A stretch of 64,000 nucleotides of DNA from the sequence record PP400786, one strand, 5' to 3'. The stretch is from Escherichia phage FL12. Positions within the stretch are counted from its first letter, which is position 1. Every line of letters begins with the position of its first letter. Made by a program: the position numbers and the translations under genes. Shown here one piece after another: positions 1,429 through 47,668 of this stretch. The notes under the pieces are model-generated. The model worked only from the letters and a program-made list of their open reading frames with translations. It did not search any database and had not been told where the DNA came from.

Positions 1429-1605
1429 TTACCCTTTAAGTAAGTCGTAAAATCCGCCATTCACATGCTTAGGGGCAGAGACTAACCGAATAGCAATCCG
1501 ATGACAATCAGGACATACATCAGTATCTCTTTCAGAAATTTTCTTGATTTTTTCGTATTCTTTTGCGCAGTCTTTTGATTGACATTTATAATCATAAAGC
1601 GGCAT
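1429..1605 (-). CDS. small zinc-ribbon protein (CxxC-N18-CxxC, FmdB-like)
   Basis: Own translation, 58 aa: MPLYDYKCQSKDCAKEYEKIKKISERDTDVCPDCHRIAIRL...; not in ORF track (<60 aa). Confidence 0.45.
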   Translation of the reverse strand: MPLYDYKCQSKDCAKEYEKIKKISERDTDVCPDCHRIAIRLVSAPKHVNGGFYDLLKG

Positions 1606-1607
1606 AA

Positions 1608-2021
1608 TTATTCCTTAAAGTGAGCTTTCAACATCTGATACAAGGACCATGCCTGTTCATCATTTTCAATAGTAACTTTCATTACAGGGAATTTAGATTG
1701 ATCAGTTATCGGTGCAGATTCTTCCTGCTCTTCAGCTGCCTGGTATGGATTTTCAACTTCATTAAAGAATTCAGCTTCATTCGATGAAAGCCAAATAAAA
1801 TCTTCATCCAAAATATCTTTACCAGAAGATAGTACTAAATTTCCAGCAAATGACATAATTTTAATAGGACGCCCAAGAGCATCCACATCTAAAATTTTAA
1901 AAGGATGCATACCTAAACGGCGTGCATAGATTCCGTTATCAGTATGGTCTTTAATAAAATTTTCTTGAGCTTGTTTATTTTTAAATTGATACCATTTATT
2001 AACTTCAAATTTAATAGCCAT
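1608..2021 (-). CDS. hypothetical acidic protein (goF position/size in T4)
   Basis: ORF track 137 aa. Confidence 0.45.
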
Positions 2022-2239
2022 TAATAAATTTCCTTCCAGTAAGTTGTACCATCTTCAGTGATTTCACGAAATACACCGTAAATTGGTTGTTTATCCCCAA
2101 CCTTTTCATACACATAAACCGAAGTCAAGTGAGTAAACTTAGCAGTGTGTTCCTTTTGAACTACTACCAAATCTGGATCGAATAACACATCTTCAAATTC
2201 GTCATTAGTGCAATTCTGAACAATTTTACGTTTCATCAT
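2021..2239 (-). CDS. hypothetical protein (cef position/size in T4)
   Basis: ORF track 72 aa; ATGA overlap with downstream ORF. Confidence 0.45.
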
Positions 2240-10333: not shown

Positions 10334-10801
10334 CTAAAACAATAGTAGGAGCATCGTCAAATTCATGAATTTTAGCAATTTTGGATTTAAATTATTCCAT
10401 ACATAATAAATAAAGTATGATAAAGCATCTTCACTCGCAATTATAAATTTATTTCCTTTATCTATTTTCCAACTATATAATGAATCGTACGAATAGAAAG
10501 ATAAAGGTTTATCATTATATTGTTCTGCGCTAACATTAATGTATTCGGATTTAGTAAATGCTTCAATTGCTCTAAACGGAATATTTGGTACAGTTTCAAT
10601 AATACCAATCTTTTTAAGTTTTATTTCAGCATCTTCTGGAACTGGCATTGAAACGAAATTTTCTACGAGATACATAGGGTTACAATAACCCTTATCAATC
10701 ACTACGGCTACAGTAATTGGAACATCTTTAGCAAACGACATGCTATTACTGCTAATATACATTTCAAACAAAATCGCTTCCATAATTTTCCTCAATCGCA
10801 A
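10334..10801 (-). CDS. hypothetical protein
   Basis: ORF track 155 aa. Confidence 0.45.
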
Positions 10802-14100: not shown

Positions 14101-14456
14101 TTAACCTCTATTCATAAAAGCATTAAAAATTTGGTCATCAATAGATGGCGCAGTAATATTTTCTGCATCATTTAGCAAATCATTAATTTCATCAGATAGC
14201 ATAACACATGTACCTTTATTTCCTGTAATTGTTACTGCACAATTACGAACGTTTTCTTTATCAAATTTTAGGTTAATATTTTCGTAGTGAAAATCCTTTA
14301 ATGCCGAATATATCTTTAAAATGAAATTGTCTTTTACTACAATAAACCCAACCTCACTATTAAAACGTGGTTCATGGAAACTGTAATAAACCTTTTCATC
14401 TATAAAATCGTATGAAATTTTTCCATTTTTAAATATGAAAATTCAGAACTATACAT
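14101..14456 (-). pseudogene. degenerate partial duplicate of the downstream 210-aa gene; no clean start
   Basis: ATG 14454-14456 opens an 18-codon frame; the +2 frame encodes ...VGFIVVKDNFILKIY...SIDDQIFNAFMNRG paralogous to 14458-15090; ~45-bp near-identical junction repeat at 14097-14144 and 14454-14501. Confidence 0.45.
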
Positions 14457-14457
14457 A

Positions 14458-15090
14458 TTAATCTCTATTCATAAAAGCATTAAAAATTTGATCGTCAATA
14501 GAAACTTTTACTTTAGGCTGTTCTTCAAACGGTAATTCATATCCACATATTACAATTTTGTGATCGATACCAAAATACACAGAAGCAATATTATTAATAT
14601 TATTTTCAGTGAAATCTAAATCAACATCAATATCTTTTTGACTAACGCTCAAAGGATAATTAATACGAATAATTCGATTATCTTTAACAAAGATTCCACC
14701 GACATACTCTGTGCTGCGTTTAAAGTTTACACGTTTCCTAAATGAAAAATATTCAGGTTCTTTATGGGCTCGACTCATAGGGCTTAAAGTGTATTCCGAA
14801 TATGAAATATCAAATCCTACACCTTCAATATGAGCCAAAGTGTCATGATTAAACCAATTATAATCGTATGCCAAATCCATTAAATTGTAATATGTGAAAG
14901 GCACCGGATTAACATCATATGTTGTACCTTTAAAATCTGCCCAGGCAACGATTTCGTTATCTTTAACAATTACAAAAATTGTGCCAATAAGATATCCACG
15001 GTTATTTTCATCAGGCGTTATATTATAACATTGTGCATCAGGAAATTTACCGTATTTAAACGGTGGATTTTTGTGCATATAATAAATCAT
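14458..15090 (-). CDS. hypothetical protein with internal repeat (61.2 position in T4)
   Basis: ORF track 210 aa; repeated IFV(I)VKDN modules. Confidence 0.5.
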   Translation of the reverse strand: MIYYMHKNPPFKYGKFPDAQCYNITPDENNRGYLIGTIFVIVKDNEIVAWADFKGTTYDVNPVPFTYYNLMDLAYDYNWFNHDTLAHIEGVGFDISYSEYTLSPMSRAHKEPEYFSFRKRVNFKRSTEYVGGIFVKDNRIIRINYPLSVSQKDIDVDLDFTENNINNIASVYFGIDHKIVICGYELPFEEQPKVKVSIDDQIFNAFMNRD

Positions 15091-15091
15091 A

Positions 15092-18901: not shown

Positions 18902-19567
18902 TTATAGTAGTGTTCTTGTTCCACGAAATACTTCGAGCATTCTTGCATAAGATTTATTTGGAAATCCAGCTTCAATTGCTAATTTTTTAAGCTTAATAGC
19001 ACCGGGTTTTCCAGAGTTTTCCCATATTTCTTTAATCTTTTCAATGTTATCCCACATTATTGGGTCACGTTTATGTGATGGTTTATTTCTATTATAACCA
19101 TATGGATTATTAAGCAAAGCTTCTTTTCGTTTTGCTTTAGTTTCTTCTGACTGCTTTTTGCCTAGCTGGGCTTTCCGGCAAACATCACTAAATCCAAGAT
19201 GTTTTGGTTTTCCTTTTTGAGCTTTTGAAATTTTTTCTTTGGTTTCTGATGAAACTCTATAACCAATTCTTCTACCACCCTCTCCACCAATTTTTAAATT
19301 ATAAGTCATAGGATCATTTACCACATCTATTGTTACTAATTCTCTTTCAGCATCACGGGCTGATTTAAAATCTTTATAAAACCCAAGAATGCTTAAATTA
19401 AAATTTTTCTTACCATACTTTTTCTTGGCTTGTGCTAATAAAGTTCCTGATCCCATATAACCATCATTTAAATCATCGGTTGAATGAGTTCCATAGTAAA
19501 TTTTATTATTAACTAAATTAGTTATAACATAAGTATAATTATATTTCTTTTCTTTATGTCTTTTCAT
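18902..19567 (-). CDS. segA: GIY-YIG homing endonuclease SegA-like
   Basis: start moved to ATG 19565-19567 giving 221 aa; KYNYTYVITNLVNNKIYYGTHS GIY-YIG motif; between uvsX and beta-gt. Confidence 0.7.
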   Translation of the reverse strand: MKRHKEKKYNYTYVITNLVNNKIYYGTHSTDDLNDGYMGSGTLLAQAKKKYGKKNFNLSILGFYKDFKSARDAERELVTIDVVNDPMTYNLKIGGEGGRRIGYRVSSETKEKISKAQKGKPKHLGFSDVCRKAQLGKKQSEETKAKRKEALLNNPYGYNRNKPSHKRDPIMWDNIEKIKEIWENSGKPGAIKLKKLAIEAGFPNKSYARMLEVFRGTRTLL

Positions 19568-19731
19568 GTCATTAATCAACTGCTATTCGATGAACTTCTC
19601 TCTTTTCTAATCAATATAACAAAAGAAGTCCCAAAAAGCAAACAGACCTAAACCGATAATAAGCAATAAAGGTCCTAACATTTATTCCACCGGTTAAAGA
19701 TAAATAACTTTCTAATAATAGTTCATAATTT

Positions 19732-35335: not shown

Positions 35336-35533
35336 CTAAACTTTTTGGGCACCCTTCCAGCCTTCATACATCATTGCGGCTGATATTAATATTGCTCCTG
35401 AGCAACTCGAATATTTGTGATTCCAAAACCAGTTTAGAAAAACTTCATCATCAATACCTTGGGCTATCATATTTTCAAAGAACTGACGACGAGATTCGGC
35501 AATTCGCTGTGATAATTTAGATTCAGGATTCAT
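35336..35533 (-). CDS. small hypothetical protein
   Basis: ORF track 65 aa. Confidence 0.4.
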   Translation of the reverse strand: MNPESKLSQRIAESRRQFFENMIAQGIDDEVFLNWFWNHKYSSCSGAILISAAMMYEGWKGAQKV

Positions 35534-36934: not shown

Positions 36935-37405
36935 TTAATCATGTTTCCACACCCCATCGGTATTTGACCAAAGTCGCTGATTATCTGATCCTCGCCACAG
37001 CTTTTTGGTCGGAAGATTTTTCTCATACTTCCCATCAATAATAACATCAACATATTTAAGCATTTCTAGTTGTTTAATATCTTCAAATTTATATCCTGTC
37101 CACAACCAAATGCTTTTATTGGGATAAAGATTTTTTACTGTTTGAACAATGCAATGAACAACATCTCGGTTATCAGGATAGAGAGGGTCTCCTCCAGTTA
37201 TAGTTAATCCTTCTATATAATCATTATTCAAACATTCAATTAATTGTTCTAGTGTTTCACCAGTGAATGGAACGCCATTTCTAGCGTTCCATGTTGATTT
37301 ATTATAACACCCTTCACATTTATGCAAACAACCTGTAACGAAAAGAACGACCCTGCATCCAGGGCCATTCACAAAATCGCAAGGATAAAATCTATCATAA
37401 TTCAT
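36935..37405 (-). CDS. nrdG: anaerobic ribonucleotide reductase activating protein (radical SAM)
   Basis: 156 aa; CLHKCEGC CxxxCxxC motif. Confidence 0.85.
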   Translation of the reverse strand: MNYDRFYPCDFVNGPGCRVVLFVTGCLHKCEGCYNKSTWNARNGVPFTGETLEQLIECLNNDYIEGLTITGGDPLYPDNRDVVHCIVQTVKNLYPNKSIWLWTGYKFEDIKQLEMLKYVDVIIDGKYEKNLPTKKLWRGSDNQRLWSNTDGVWKHD

Positions 37406-39219
37406 TGGTGTTTAACCCTATGCATGATTTCTTTATTTTTGCCGAGATTAAATCCACGTTCGTTCGGATTTCCCAAATAACCACAAGTTCTTCTTATTGT
37501 GTTCATCTTTTTAGGATCAGTTTCTCCACAAATAGAACAAACAAACCCGTTTTCAGTAGGAGTCATTTCATGGGTACTTCCACACGTAAAACATTTATCT
37601 ACTGGCATGTTAACACCAAAATAATCTAAATGTTGTGCAGCATAATCCCATACAGCCTCAAGACCTTTTAGGTTATTTTTCATATCAGGAAGTTCAACAT
37701 AAGAAATGTGACCGCCTGTCGCAATGAAATGATATGGGGCTTCGCGAGAAATCTTTTCAAACGGAGTAATATTTTCTTCTACTGAAACGTGGAAACTGTT
37801 AGTGTACCAGCCTTTATCAGTAACATCCTTTACACTTCCATATTTCTCAGTATCAAGTTTACAGAAGCGATAACAAAGGTTTTCAGCAGGTGTAGAATAC
37901 AAGCTAAAAGCAAAACCAGTTCTTTCAGTCCACTGCTTAAGACGAGCATTCATTTTAGTTAAAATTTCCTGTCCAATATCACGACCGACAAGAATATTCA
38001 ATTCGTGAATACCAATGTATCCTAAGGACACTGAACTTCTACCGTTTTTAAATAACTCAATTATATCATCATCGGGTTTAAGACGAACCCCGAATGCACC
38101 TTCTTGGTAAAGAATAGGAGCAACAGTAGCTTTAACTCCTTTTAATGAACTAATTCTACACATCAATGCTTCAAAACACAAATCCATTCGTTCATTGAAC
38201 AATTCGGCAAATTTCTGTTCATTGAACTGTGTTCCAATATAAGAATCTAATGCAATACGAGGAAGATTCAGTGTTACAACGCCAAGATTATTACGTCCAT
38301 CAAGAATTTCATTACCAGTCGAATCTTTCCATACGCTCAAGAAACTGCGGCAACCCATTGGAGAAACAGGAATAGATGAACCTGTGATAGCTTTATTGTT
38401 CTTAGCTGAAATAATATCAGGATACATTCTTTTGCTTGCACACTCTAGAGCAAGCTGCTTAATATCATAGTTCGGATCGTCTTTATAAAGATTAACACCT
38501 TCTTCAACGAACATAACAAGCTTAGGGAAAATAGGAGTTATCCCATCGCGACCAAGGCCTTTAATACGATTTTTCAGAATTGCTTTCTGAATCATTCGTT
38601 CAGTCCAGTCAGTTCCCGTGCCAAATGTAATTGTTACAAAAGGCGTTTGTCCATTTGAACTAAAGAGAGTATTTACTTCATATTCATAAGCTTGGAACGC
38701 ATCGTATACGTCTTTTTCTGTTTTAGATTGGGCATAATTCAACGCATCAGCGATTTGCCATTTTTCTGCATCCTCAATATGTTTTGCATAGGTGCGTTTA
38801 ACATAAGGAGAAAGGACTTTGTCTACATTTGCAAAAGTCGTTCCACCGTATTGATGGGAAGCAACCTGTGCAGTAATTTGTGCCATAATTGCAGTAGCAA
38901 CACCGATTGATTTAGGAGTTTCAATCTGTGCATTACCGAGCTTAAATCCGTTCTCAAGCATTCCTTTTAAATCTACTAAACAGCAATTAGTAAATGGAAG
39001 AGCAGGGGAATAATCAATATCATGGAAATGAATAATTCCGCTTTCATGCGCTTTCATAATAAAAGACGGGACCATATTTTTGGCAATGTGTTTAGACACA
39101 ATACCAGCCATAAGGTCCCGTTGAGTTGGAAAAACACGAGAATCTTTATTAGCATTCTCGTTCAAAAGGTCTTTATTAGTTTTATGAATCAATCCTTCAA
39201 TTTCTTTTTCAATTGTCAT
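37402..39219 (-). CDS. nrdD: anaerobic ribonucleoside-triphosphate reductase (glycyl radical enzyme), uninterrupted
   Basis: 605 aa; C-terminal glycyl radical motif RRTCGYLG; zinc ribbon CFTCGS...CSIC. Confidence 0.9.
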   Translation of the reverse strand: MTIEKEIEGLIHKTNKDLLNENANKDSRVFPTQRDLMAGIVSKHIAKNMVPSFIMKAHESGIIHFHDIDYSPALPFTNCCLVDLKGMLENGFKLGNAQIETPKSIGVATAIMAQITAQVASHQYGGTTFANVDKVLSPYVKRTYAKHIEDAEKWQIADALNYAQSKTEKDVYDAFQAYEYEVNTLFSSNGQTPFVTITFGTGTDWTERMIQKAILKNRIKGLGRDGITPIFPKLVMFVEEGVNLYKDDPNYDIKQLALECASKRMYPDIISAKNNKAITGSSIPVSPMGCRSFLSVWKDSTGNEILDGRNNLGVVTLNLPRIALDSYIGTQFNEQKFAELFNERMDLCFEALMCRISSLKGVKATVAPILYQEGAFGVRLKPDDDIIELFKNGRSSVSLGYIGIHELNILVGRDIGQEILTKMNARLKQWTERTGFAFSLYSTPAENLCYRFCKLDTEKYGSVKDVTDKGWYTNSFHVSVEENITPFEKISREAPYHFIATGGHISYVELPDMKNNLKGLEAVWDYAAQHLDYFGVNMPVDKCFTCGSTHEMTPTENGFVCSICGETDPKKMNTIRRTCGYLGNPNERGFNLGKNKEIMHRVKHQ

Positions 39220-41574: not shown

Positions 41575-42207
41575 TTAAGAGCTTTTAACAATTTGGTGTG
41601 TTCTGCAATTTGGGGCTTCAACTTCAATCAAACGAGCATTGAGATATTCGCGTTCTTCTTTCATAGTATCATTCCCATGATTGGGTTTTGGTGCAGATTT
41701 AAATTCACTAGGGTCCTTTAATTTAATAACAAATTTAGTTTCAAACAGTGAAAGACCATAATTCGTATTATCATCAAAGGATTTGACTACATCCATATCA
41801 GATAATAACACGCGCAAATTATAAGCCAAAGAACTAATAGTTTCATTGTGTTTATTAGCTTCGCGTGGTTTCATATACGGAAGATTTTTATATATCTCGT
41901 GCGGAGCACAAATGATAATTGACAATTCAAATTGTCCATTCTGGGACGATGGAGTGAATTTAGCCGTAACCCAGTCTTTTACATTCACATTAATAGTACG
42001 GTTATCACCATGACAAAACAGTCTACGAGAATGCTTAAAAAGCATATTCACGTTATTATTGAATTCGTGTGAAAATTCACTAGCAAATTTTTCTTTACTA
42101 CATTTAGAAAGCCATTCTTCTGAATAAGTTCTTTTCACGTCGTTAATAATATTAAATGTAACAACACTAGCATTTGATACATTAGTCTCAATGTAGCTTG
42201 GATACAT
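41575..42207 (-). CDS. hypothetical protein
   Basis: ORF track 210 aa. Confidence 0.45.
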   Translation of the reverse strand: MYPSYIETNVSNASVVTFNIINDVKRTYSEEWLSKCSKEKFASEFSHEFNNNVNMLFKHSRRLFCHGDNRTINVNVKDWVTAKFTPSSQNGQFELSIIICAPHEIYKNLPYMKPREANKHNETISSLAYNLRVLLSDMDVVKSFDDNTNYGLSLFETKFVIKLKDPSEFKSAPKPNHGNDTMKEEREYLNARLIEVEAPNCRTHQIVKSS

Positions 42208-42452
42208 AAATTTTTAACATTATTAACAGCTATTATAGAAGATAGTAATCGGGAACGTTTGAACCACTCGAGCAAAGAACCAAGAGAATGTGAATACGCA
42301 TTTTGTGTATCTTTACAAATATGGTTTTCCCATCCAATATAGTCTAAAAAATCACGAAGAATATTATTGATTACTGCTCTGTGTCCTATCTGATAATTAC
42401 GGTGTTTAGTAATAAGACTGTCAAAATAATCAATATAATGTTTACGAGTCAT
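42135..42452 (-). CDS. hypothetical protein
   Basis: start moved to ATG 42450-42452 (MTRKHYIDYF), ~105 aa, downstream of early promoter. Confidence 0.45.
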   Translation of the reverse strand: MTRKHYIDYFDSLITKHRNYQIGHRAVINNILRDFLDYIGWENHICKDTQNAYSHSLGSLLEWFKRSRLLSSIIAVNNVKNLCIQATLRLMYQMLVLLHLILLTT

Positions 42453-42480
42453 AATAATCTCCTCAGTAGAAAATAAGAAC

Positions 42481-45485: not shown

Positions 45486-45800
45486 CTAAAAGAAACTTCT
45501 TTCACAATTTTTTCCACTGAACCACGCGCTCACTGCTTTCTTAGTCTCAGGAGCAGTGTTATCCATAAACCATTCAAAAGCAGCCTTTTTATGATTCTGG
45601 AGGGCTTCTCGGGCTTTAATCTGCTCACGGTCTATTAACACTAACATATGAGCCTTTCTTGTCACCAAGGGCTTCTTATGATTTTTTGAATACTCCCAAT
45701 CATTTGTCCATCGCATCGTTGTTGCGAACTGAAATACAGCTTCTTTAATTTTAGTTTCGTAAATTTCACGAGCCTTTGAGTATAACATCACTACCTCCAT
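45486..45800 (-). CDS. hypothetical protein
   Basis: ORF track 104 aa. Confidence 0.45.
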   Translation of the reverse strand: MEVVMLYSKAREIYETKIKEAVFQFATTMRWTNDWEYSKNHKKPLVTRKAHMLVLIDREQIKAREALQNHKKAAFEWFMDNTAPETKKAVSAWFSGKNCERSFF

Positions 45801-45870: not shown

Positions 45871-46590
45871 TTAGGATTCTTCTAAATGTCTTTTCTGAAA
45901 AGTTGATACCATACTACGATACGGTTCATTTGGATATCCGTGTTTTATAGCTTCCTTTGTAAATTTTCTCCATCCACATTTAGTTTCTTTCCAGAGCTCG
46001 AATAATTCATCTTCATACTGCCATATAGTTAAATGAGAACGCTTTGCAGCTTTAATTCCATTAATATGCTTTTCTTTTACTGCAGGATTGCTTAGTTTCT
46101 TTTTAATAATATTACTAACTTTTCTAACAAAAACCGGGTCCTTATATCGTTGCGAAGTTTTTATTGAAGTGTTTTAATTTAGCTTCCGGCGTGGATGTGA
46201 CCTCTTTCATCTTTTTCTTCATATGCTGTATATGATTAGGATTTTTCCATAAATTTATAGAATGCTTTTTGCATTTTATCCTAGTTTCATCTGCAACCTT
46301 TCCTCCTTCACCCCCGTATGACAGGTTAACACAGTTTTTCCCATATTTCAATTTACCTGCCATGATATATAATATTTCAGCTTGTACCATTTTATCATAA
46401 TTATCAAAAACTTCTAAAACCGTTTTTGATAATATGTGGTCATTTGACACTTTTACACGTTCTATATAATTTCCACTACCAACATACGAATCATTGATAT
46501 TATTAGTTATATGTCGACCATAATAGTATTTCTTAATACCTGTCTTTAAATTTAATATTTCAGTTTTATAGATAGTAAAATATTTTTCAT
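45871..46590 (-). pseudogene. decayed GIY-YIG (Seg-like) homing endonuclease gene with two frameshifts
   Basis: ATG 46588-46590 then A5 run; GIY-YIG motif (FTIYKTEILNLKTGIKKYYYGRHITNN...SYVGSG) is in the +2 frame; GGEGG middle segment is ORF 46142-46450; C-terminal remnant (…KKKLSNPAVKEKHINGIKAAKRSH…) is in a third frame to 45871. Confidence 0.55.
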
Positions 46591-47555
46591 TTTAATAATA
46601 CCGTTTCAGCGATTTCTTCCCAATGGTTTTTGTCGGTCATAATAAAGTCAGCAAGATAAAGAGCAGTACGCAGTGAAACATTGCGTAAACGATTAACATT
46701 GACTTTCATCCATGATAATGCTTTATAAGTTTCTTCATCAGAAAGACCGCGTTTTTGCATCATGTCAGTTGAAAGAATAACATCTTCAACCCTGACCATA
46801 ATTTCTTCATTAGTGTGAACACCCAAATCTAAATAAACTGAGCGGGAAACTAATGCTTGTAAATGTGGAGCAAGTTTAGTACCACGGTCTAATTCGCGGT
46901 CAATATCAACGTTTGTGATAAAAACAATCGTTCCTTTAAATTCAAACTCGCGCTCAATGCCTTTTTCTTCTAAGTAAGAAGATGCAGTGCTCCAGCAGAC
47001 TTTACGGGTCTCTCCAGTGTCCAGAGCAGCTTTCAGAAGATTAAGAATGTCCATATCAGAGAAAACATCCACATCATCAATCAAAAGGACAGAATTCTCT
47101 TCACGATTATTCCAAAGCTGCTCATAAAGACCAATACCAGAGATTTTACCGTTAATGCTTTTATATTCAATGTATCCAATATCATTTGCTTTATTCAAAG
47201 CTTTATCTAAAGAATACGTTTTACCAATACCCGCCGCACCAGAGATAATTAATGAACGAATGTTTCCGTTAATAATACCATTCGTCATCATTCCCATAAC
47301 ATTAAATCTTTTATTAATGCGGGTTTTCATATCTTCATATGATTCTTTAACTTCTTCAACTTTTACACCATCATATGAAATGTCTGATTTGTAAACCCAA
47401 ACACCGCGACGCTTACCGTCAATTTCAACAAAAACTTTACCATCTCCTTGTGCATCTACCGGAGCATTATCTGGGAACCATTCGCCTAAGAGCTCAAAAG
47501 TTCCAGAGATTTCTTTACCGAAGTAGATACCCTTATTGATAGTTACAGTTTTCAT
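46587..47555 (-). CDS. P-loop NTPase (AAA-like)
   Basis: start moved to ATG 47553-47555 (MKTVTINKG; RBS GGAG), 322 aa; Walker A GAAGIGKT; Walker B VLLIDDVD. Confidence 0.55.
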   Translation of the reverse strand: MKTVTINKGIYFGKEISGTFELLGEWFPDNAPVDAQGDGKVFVEIDGKRRGVWVYKSDISYDGVKVEEVKESYEDMKTRINKRFNVMGMMTNGIINGNIRSLIISGAAGIGKTYSLDKALNKANDIGYIEYKSINGKISGIGLYEQLWNNREENSVLLIDDVDVFSDMDILNLLKAALDTGETRKVCWSTASSYLEEKGIEREFEFKGTIVFITNVDIDRELDRGTKLAPHLQALVSRSVYLDLGVHTNEEIMVRVEDVILSTDMMQKRGLSDEETYKALSWMKVNVNRLRNVSLRTALYLADFIMTDKNHWEEIAETVLLK

Positions 47556-47648
47556 TTTATTCTCCAAATCCGTATCAGTTGATAGTTGTATAGTACCATA
47601 AAGCTTTATGCTTGTAAACAGTTTTGTGAAAAATTTTTGAAATAAAAA

Positions 47649-47668
47649 AGGGAGCCCGAAGGCTCCCT
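47649..47668 (-). terminator. GC hairpin (agggagcccgaaggctccct) with T-run on the minus strand
   Basis: plus-strand AAAAAA precedes the hairpin. Confidence 0.5.

Follow-up and report, generated by a model that had tools for sequence, protein, structure and literature searches.

The Seg proteins of T4 and its relatives (SegA to SegG and SegH) share an N-terminal GIY...YIG element with the Y-x-GSG insertion typical of Seg proteins, catalytic Glu and Asn residues, and a GGEGG motif; after these come a helical region that carries NUMOD3-like repeats and, at the C terminus, a helical domain. Their genes are free-standing between conserved genes and show presence/absence polymorphism among related phages. 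The structural archetype of the GIY-YIG homing endonucleases is the catalytic domain of I-TevI (PDB 1LN0), which is encoded in an intron. A degeneration phase, part of a cycle of invasion, degeneration, and loss, has been discussed for homing endonuclease genes (PMC2988022). The same work lists the seg and mob genes of T4, and the nrdC.10/nrdC.9 locus is absent from that list (PMC2988022).

Here, we analyzed a 64,000-nt stretch of DNA from Escherichia phage FL12 (sequence record PP400786), which we refer to as the window. The window belongs to a T4-like phage genome (Tequatrovirus), and a gene relic was found in it among minus-strand genes. Based on comparisons with related phages, we estimate a probability of about three in four that the locus between nrdC.10 and nrdC.9 is a recently inactivated, free-standing Seg-type GIY-YIG homing endonuclease gene. 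A preliminary description had proposed that a GIY-YIG homing endonuclease gene is decaying here and that its start carries a homopolymer frameshift. That proposal was supported by the intact orthologues at the same locus and the GIY-YIG fold described below, and further by Seg-family homology and independent frameshift alleles in other phages.

The nrdC.10/nrdC.9 locus and its Seg-type gene

An end-to-end alignment placed the footprint of the ancestral seg-like gene, an orthologue of RB32ORF093c that is a pseudogene here, at positions 45871..46590 on the minus strand. The interval from the ATG at 46590 to the TAA at 45871 is the exact 720-nt span of the ancestral gene. Phages RB32, FL23, T6, and RB6 have an annotated intact 720-nt CDS (239 aa) between nrdC.10 and nrdC.9, and the footprint differs from these CDSs by two 1-nt indels and a few SNPs. 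The annotation of RB32ORF093c reads [quoted passage not shown] In RB32, RB14, RB51, T6, RB5 to RB9, and other phages, the orthologues at this locus are also 720 nt long and share 98 to 99% nucleotide identity with the window copy, but the window copy has two private 1-nt indels (A6 to A5 and A3 to A4) that abolish the ORF. When 2.2 kb of sequence around the relic was used as a query, 518 phage records matched, and the best matches (FL23, FL44, RB32, RB33, AR1, and T6) were 98 to 99% identical.

Both neighboring genes are intact. The upstream neighbor, nrdC.10 (46587..47567, minus strand), codes for an AAA/P-loop protein and was identified from the ORF list, weak matches to AAA-family Pfam models, and the annotation of relatives. 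The downstream neighbor, nrdC.9 (45486..45800, minus strand; DUF7203), was identified from the ORF list, Pfam, and the annotation of relatives. The endonuclease ATG had previously been described as coupled to the stop codon of a P-loop gene. Sequence and translation confirmed this ATGA overlap at 46587..46590 (minus strand), where the ATG (46590-46588) lies on the TGA (46589-46587) of nrdC.10, and alignments revealed the same overlap in relatives. In the gap between nrdC.11 and nrdC.10 (47590..47668, minus strand), we noted a strong hairpin terminator with an 8-bp stem containing six G-C pairs and a T-run after it, followed by an early-promoter-like TTTACA-17-TACTAT element with an extended TG. 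As judged from its sequence, this element probably drives the nrdC.10 transcript, the endonuclease relic included.

Homology to Seg proteins extended over both the catalytic and DNA-binding regions. A BLASTP comparison with the SegA protein of the window aligned residues 21 to 232 (E = 8e-9), tblastn matched SegA (6e-14), SegB, and SegH, and PHROG 314 was matched at 1.7e-30. The C-terminal region was all-helical in the structure model, and the BLASTP comparison aligned it with the C-terminal domain of the SegA encoded in the window. The protein has the order of elements given above for the Seg proteins, with the NUMOD3-type repeats and the C-terminal DNA-binding module being putative, and its gene has the same type of placement and patchy presence, but its identity to any named Seg protein is only 22 to 31%, and the copy in the window is frameshifted. 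A Pfam search with the protein itself gave no match, even at E ≤ 10, and Pfam membership was transitive only: PF19835 (SegE_GIY-YIG) was matched by 25 of 63 homologues and PF01541 (GIY-YIG) by 21 of 63. The C terminus had been called NUMOD-like in the preliminary description, a label that has indirect support in the 22 of 63 homologues that matched NUMOD3. As a Seg-family member that escapes the Pfam models, the protein is a reasonable candidate for cleavage and marker-exclusion studies.

The structure model contained a three-stranded antiparallel sheet packed on helices, which is the GIY-YIG alpha/beta fold, and this fold is confidently predicted for the uncharacterized Seg-family member. In the 63-sequence family alignment, G25, E72, and N89 were invariant, and Y8 and Y23 were at least 90% conserved. 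When the family profile was aligned to 1LN0, these conserved positions were opposite the GIY, YVG, E75, and N90 of I-TevI. The candidates for the counterpart of I-TevI R27, the conserved Arg of the first helix, were R26 and R45, neither of which is in a conserved column of the family alignment; H27 was nearly invariant. The protein and the I-TevI domain share 19% identity, and the sequence-profile match was not significant on its own (E = 0.11). The Seg-type domain also differs in that only one helix separates strands 2 and 3 and in having the Y-x-GSG insertion, and I-TevI is encoded in an intron, whereas the window gene is free-standing.

These comparisons indicated that the intact gene is an annotated but uncharacterized gene for a putative Seg-type GIY-YIG homing endonuclease, and a literature search found no paper on the RB32ORF093c-type gene. 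In the intact 239-aa protein, a GIY-YIG nuclease domain at the N terminus would be followed by a helical, putatively DNA-binding C-terminal region, and the protein would be translated at a low level through coupling to nrdC.10 at the ATGA overlap. We infer cleavage and homing from SegA to SegG (PMC2988022). By this analogy, the protein would cleave co-infecting phages without the gene in their nrdC.10/nrdC.9 region, and recombinational repair would then copy the gene into the cut phage.

The records of AR1 (AP011113.1 / NC_027983.1) and RB68 (KM607004.1 / NC_027979.1) call the nrdC.10/nrdC.9 gene segE. We regard this name as a similarity-based mislabel rather than a sign of orthology because T4 segE is at another locus, next to uvsW. 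For the window copy, a frameshifted RB32ORF093c-type seg-like endonuclease pseudogene is a better annotation than two or three small hypothetical ORFs or segE. Between uvsX and beta-gt lies a segA-type GIY-YIG homing endonuclease gene that is intact (225 aa; 18902..19579, minus strand). Thus, the window carries one live Seg gene and one dead Seg gene, the latter at nrdC.10/nrdC.9.

Two A-run lesions and the reading frames they leave

A base-by-base alignment showed that exactly two single-base indels separate the window gene from the intact alleles, and both were located through alignments with relatives. The first lesion is an A5 run at 46583..46587 (minus strand) that was ancestrally A6, and it produces a -1 frameshift at codons 2-3. 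It had been predicted that one extra A in this run would give a GIY-YIG start. When one A was added, the translation began MKKYFTIYKTEIL..., which is the N terminus of the intact 239-aa orthologues of RB32, FL23, T6, and RB6. As the sequence stands, translation of the ATG frame ends after 12 codons (MKNILLSIKLKY*) at a premature TAA at 46552..46554 (minus strand). The second lesion, which was overlooked in the preliminary description, is an A4 run at 46172..46175 (minus strand) that was ancestrally A3. It lies in the context AAATTAAA(A)CAC at 46175-46172, at about codon 139, and produces a +1 frameshift back into the ATG frame, which cancels the first lesion in length. Because a -1 shift is followed by a +1 shift, the total stays at 720 nt and the ATG and TAA share a frame, with about 137 codons between the two indels out of frame. 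Since translation in the ATG frame ends at codon 13 in any case, the +1 shift rescues nothing, and the length cancellation of the two indels is therefore most likely a coincidence.

The GIY-YIG catalytic codons are present in the window but out of frame with the ATG. The catalytic domain remnant (46301..46588, minus strand; ancestral residues about 2-97) contains Y8, Y23, G25, H27, YvGSG at 36-40, E72, N89, and GGEGG at 93-97. The preliminary description assigned the GGEGG middle and the C-terminal region to two further frames; we found only two frames in total. The GIY start and GGEGG share one continuous frame (46588..46145), which runs up to a TAA at 46142..46144 (minus strand) that was created by the second lesion and was identified from the ORF list and translation. 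As indicated by translation, the C-terminal remnant (45871..46171, minus strand; ancestral residues about 140-239), which derives from the helical linker and the putative DNA-binding region, is back in the ATG frame. This remnant has no usable start codon, and the ORF list contained no ORF of at least 25 aa in the segment. The GIY and YIG motifs both lie upstream of the first canonical start codon of the catalytic frame, a GTG at 46450. Thus, the frame is broken relative to the intact orthologues, and no alternative start keeps the functional domains. It is likely that no endonuclease is made because the ATG frame ends after 12 codons, no other start rescues it, and the C-terminal part is startless.

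Alleles in relatives and the origin of the lesions

Short queries spanning each indel were used to compare GenBank copies of the gene. The first lesion site was A6 in 66 of 66 copies and the second was A3 in 64 of 64, so that the A5 and A4 of the window were found in none; 57 of the 60 copies listed were exactly 720 nt long. Searches of IMG/VR yielded neither the A5 nor the A4 allele, and the A4 allele had no exact match in IMG/VR or the genome collection. The exact A5 allele was present in a 9.1-kb metagenome contig (UMED01029746.1) from a different phage, which has 93.4% identity to the window over 8 kb. At the second site this contig retains A3, its SNP haplotype is T6/RB32-like, and a check for further gene-breaking indels in it found none. 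The window gene corresponds to the FL23 haplotype plus one SNP and two indels. Since the contig shares A5 on another haplotype, the A6-to-A5 change has been seen twice, in different backgrounds.

Frameshifted copies were also found in named phages. The AR1 copy is broken by a T5-to-T4 change (nt 458-462), the G157lw copy by an A6-to-A5 change (nt 247-252), and the RB10 copy by a G5-to-G12 change (nt 272-276). Like the window copy, these alleles are independent null alleles caused by a change in homopolymer length in otherwise near-identical genes; they have one hit each, whereas the window copy has two hits that cancel in length. In the RB10 record (KM606999.1), the run is G12 versus G5 in the near-identical sibling RB6 and all other copies. 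An expansion of +7 is unusual, and the G12 could be a sequencing artefact in KM606999.1. The alleles indicate that the gene has been inactivated independently at least five times, each time at a homopolymer run, and the frameshifted AR1, G157lw, and RB10 alleles fit the degeneration phase.

The intact gene contains 11 runs of at least 5 nt in 720 nt, or 15.3 per kb versus 7.0 per kb for the whole window, a density reached by only 1.1% of 720-nt tiles. This homopolymer richness makes the gene a large target for slippage frameshifts. The A-runs of T4 are the textbook case of frameshifts by slippage (the Streisinger model and the rII hot spots). In the explanation that we favor, two replication-slippage mutations in A-runs (A6 to A5 at codons 2-3 and A3 to A4 at about codon 139) would have wrecked the frame, and the resulting copy would be a neutral relic in the degeneration phase of the homing endonuclease life cycle. 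This is an ordinary instance of the decay of a selfish homing gene, and its significance goes little beyond annotation. The five or more independent homopolymer knockouts do provide a clean natural illustration of Streisinger-type slippage in selfish gene decay.

We also surveyed indels across the window by aligning all of it to RB6 and listing every gap that was not a multiple of three. Most of these gaps were compensating pairs in divergent stretches or were intergenic. Isolated 1-nt indels inside ORFs and in well-matched context were found at 10370 (mrh), 35349 (55.3), 41612, and 42211, and two were found in the endonuclease relic. The indels at 41612 and 42211 are both in nrdC.3, in a stretch of 86% identity with several other gaps. 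Further examination covered the mrh and 55.3 indels, whose surroundings are clean. In mrh (about 10334..10786, minus strand), the T5-to-T4 change at 10370 was absent among the matches listed of 195. This deletion swaps the last 23 residues of Mrh for 11 others, and either a recent mutation or a miscalled homopolymer would account for it. In 55.3 (minus strand), the extra G at 35349 (G2 to G3) alters only the last three residues of gp55.3 and is apparently private among about 470 phage records. At the mrh and 55.3 sites, each record listed differs from the window by one base in length. Of the four private 1-nt indels in mrh, 55.3, and the relic, three are in homopolymer runs of at least 3 nt, and one is in a G-G doublet.

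The only serious rival to a decayed gene is a homopolymer artefact of sequencing or assembly, in which the phage really has intact A6 and A3 runs and one or both single-base differences are miscalls. We consider this unlikely, but it stays alive because miscalls would also yield private 1-nt indels with intact downstream coding potential. Both differences are changes in A-run length that are private among the 64 to 66 GenBank copies, homopolymer errors are typical of some sequencing platforms, and two indels versus one SNP relative to the FL23 haplotype is a high share of indels. Moreover, the window has two more private 1-nt indels inside ORFs, those in mrh (T5 to T4) and 55.3 (G2 to G3), and the original frame downstream of each still reads as coding sequence. 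The distribution of the indels is what favors real mutations, because none are in constrained genes, two are in C-terminal tails, and two are in a dispensable selfish gene. The large and essential genes (gp43, gp41, gp46/47, nrdD, gp39, uvsX, and others, covering tens of kb) have no isolated frameshift, and the mrh and 55.3 indels fall in the last 8 to 15% of small accessory genes, as they would after selection rather than through random error. At about four isolated ORF-internal indels in about 55 kb, two random errors in one 720-nt gene are improbable. In addition, the same A5 occurs independently in the otherwise clean metagenome contig, other phages have comparable frameshift alleles of the same gene, and A3 to A4 is atypical for a long-homopolymer miscall.

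In another reading, inactivation was selected in two steps: the A3-to-A4 change came first and yielded a putatively harmful, catalytic-only protein, which was then silenced by the A6-to-A5 knockout. In its favor, an A4 change alone would give a 152-aa protein that retains the complete GIY-YIG domain and lacks the C-terminal DNA-binding region, each mutation has a phenotype if they arose in this order, and the start-proximal A6 run was hit twice independently. However, it is the A5-only allele that exists, and no A4-only allele was found in GenBank, IMG/VR, or the genome collection. A dead gene rich in homopolymers that took two neutral hits would account for the data just as well. We judge this sequence of events, which is a variant of neutral decay rather than a true alternative to it, to be very unlikely. 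It is a highly improbable idea that the start-proximal A6 tract is a contingency switch resembling phase variation, with replication slippage in phage populations turning a potentially costly endonuclease on (A6) or off (A5). The corresponding view that the A5 alleles on two haplotypes are in an off state, and not in terminal decay, is just as improbable. An A6 at codons 2-3 (AAA-AAA) is kept in the 46%-identical homologue of a Klebsiella phage, which bears on the switch. Finally, it is extremely unlikely that the gene is still expressed through RNA polymerase slippage or a -1/+2 frameshift of Lys-tRNA at AUG-AAA-AAU that restores the MK(K)YFTIYK frame. The A-run is well placed, and either one additional A in the mRNA or a -1/+2 ribosome shift would restore the GIY-YIG frame. 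T4-type phages use the E. coli RNA polymerase. Slippage by this polymerase requires at least 7 T residues and more for A (PMC6260861), and genome surveys saw selection against slippery runs at about 9 nt (PMC1088944), so that a run of only A5 is below the slippage length. The sequence C-AAA-AAA gives 25 to 60% -1 ribosomal frameshifting in E. coli over-expression constructs (PMC1851650), which counts in favor of recoding, but the G-AAA-AAU found here does not fit the X-XXY-YYZ pattern of a slippery heptamer, and the only shift that would both keep pairing and reach the right frame is a +2 hop of the Lys-tRNA. Stimulatory structure is also absent, since 121 nt of RNA surrounding the site gave a folding energy of -8.6 kcal/mol (z = 0.57 versus shuffles), and the frameshifted arrangement is not conserved, given the in-frame A6 (66/66) and A3 (64/64) of the GenBank copies. 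The second indel would still truncate a corrected product at residue 152, ahead of the DNA-binding region, and a full product would need a second, opposite shift at a mere A4. Thus, neither run length and heptamer, nor conservation, nor RNA structure pointed to programmed recoding, and the earlier suggestion of expression via transcriptional slippage was not supported.

Occupancy of the nrdC.10/nrdC.9 site

The gene was present in 66 of the 518 records that match the flanks, or about 13% of the Tequatrovirus records matching the locus. T4 has an empty site, with nrdC.10 and nrdC.9 annotated 94 nt apart. In a three-way alignment of the window, RB32, and T4, the endonuclease cassette (45875..46608, minus strand) comprised about 734 nt versus about 37 nt at the T4 empty site. 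Homology to T4 stops a few codons before the end of nrdC.10 (window position 46609) and resumes at TAAGACAAAAAGG after the endonuclease stop (about 45875), so the cassette also replaces the last few codons at the 3' end of nrdC.10. The gene is not in an intron, its neighbors are conserved, its presence is patchy, and its boundaries are sharp. As far as the alignments allow us to judge, patchy occurrence with sharp cassette boundaries is the pattern of a free-standing homing endonuclease gene.

The Klebsiella phage homologue mentioned above (46% identical) is located at 1501..2217 of the vB_KaeM_Nispero record (OL539458.1), directly after a homologue of nrdC.10 (74% identical). The Nispero (Jiaodavirus) homologue also begins ATGAAAAAATAT (A6), without the ATGA overlap. 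Thus, two phage genera carry an endonuclease gene at this insertion site.

The comparison with RB6 also revealed differences elsewhere. The window does not have the seg-type endonuclease gene that RB6 calls segD, between nrdG and nrdD (about 37405-37466), or nrdC.4 (about 42433-42465), which is likewise absent from UMED01029746.1. The absences of the segD-labelled gene and nrdC.4 are therefore further presence/absence polymorphisms in the same region. A 210-aa ORF in the window (14458..15090, minus strand) has no counterpart in the aligned RB6 genome and lies within about 1 kb of unaligned sequence (14110-15091).
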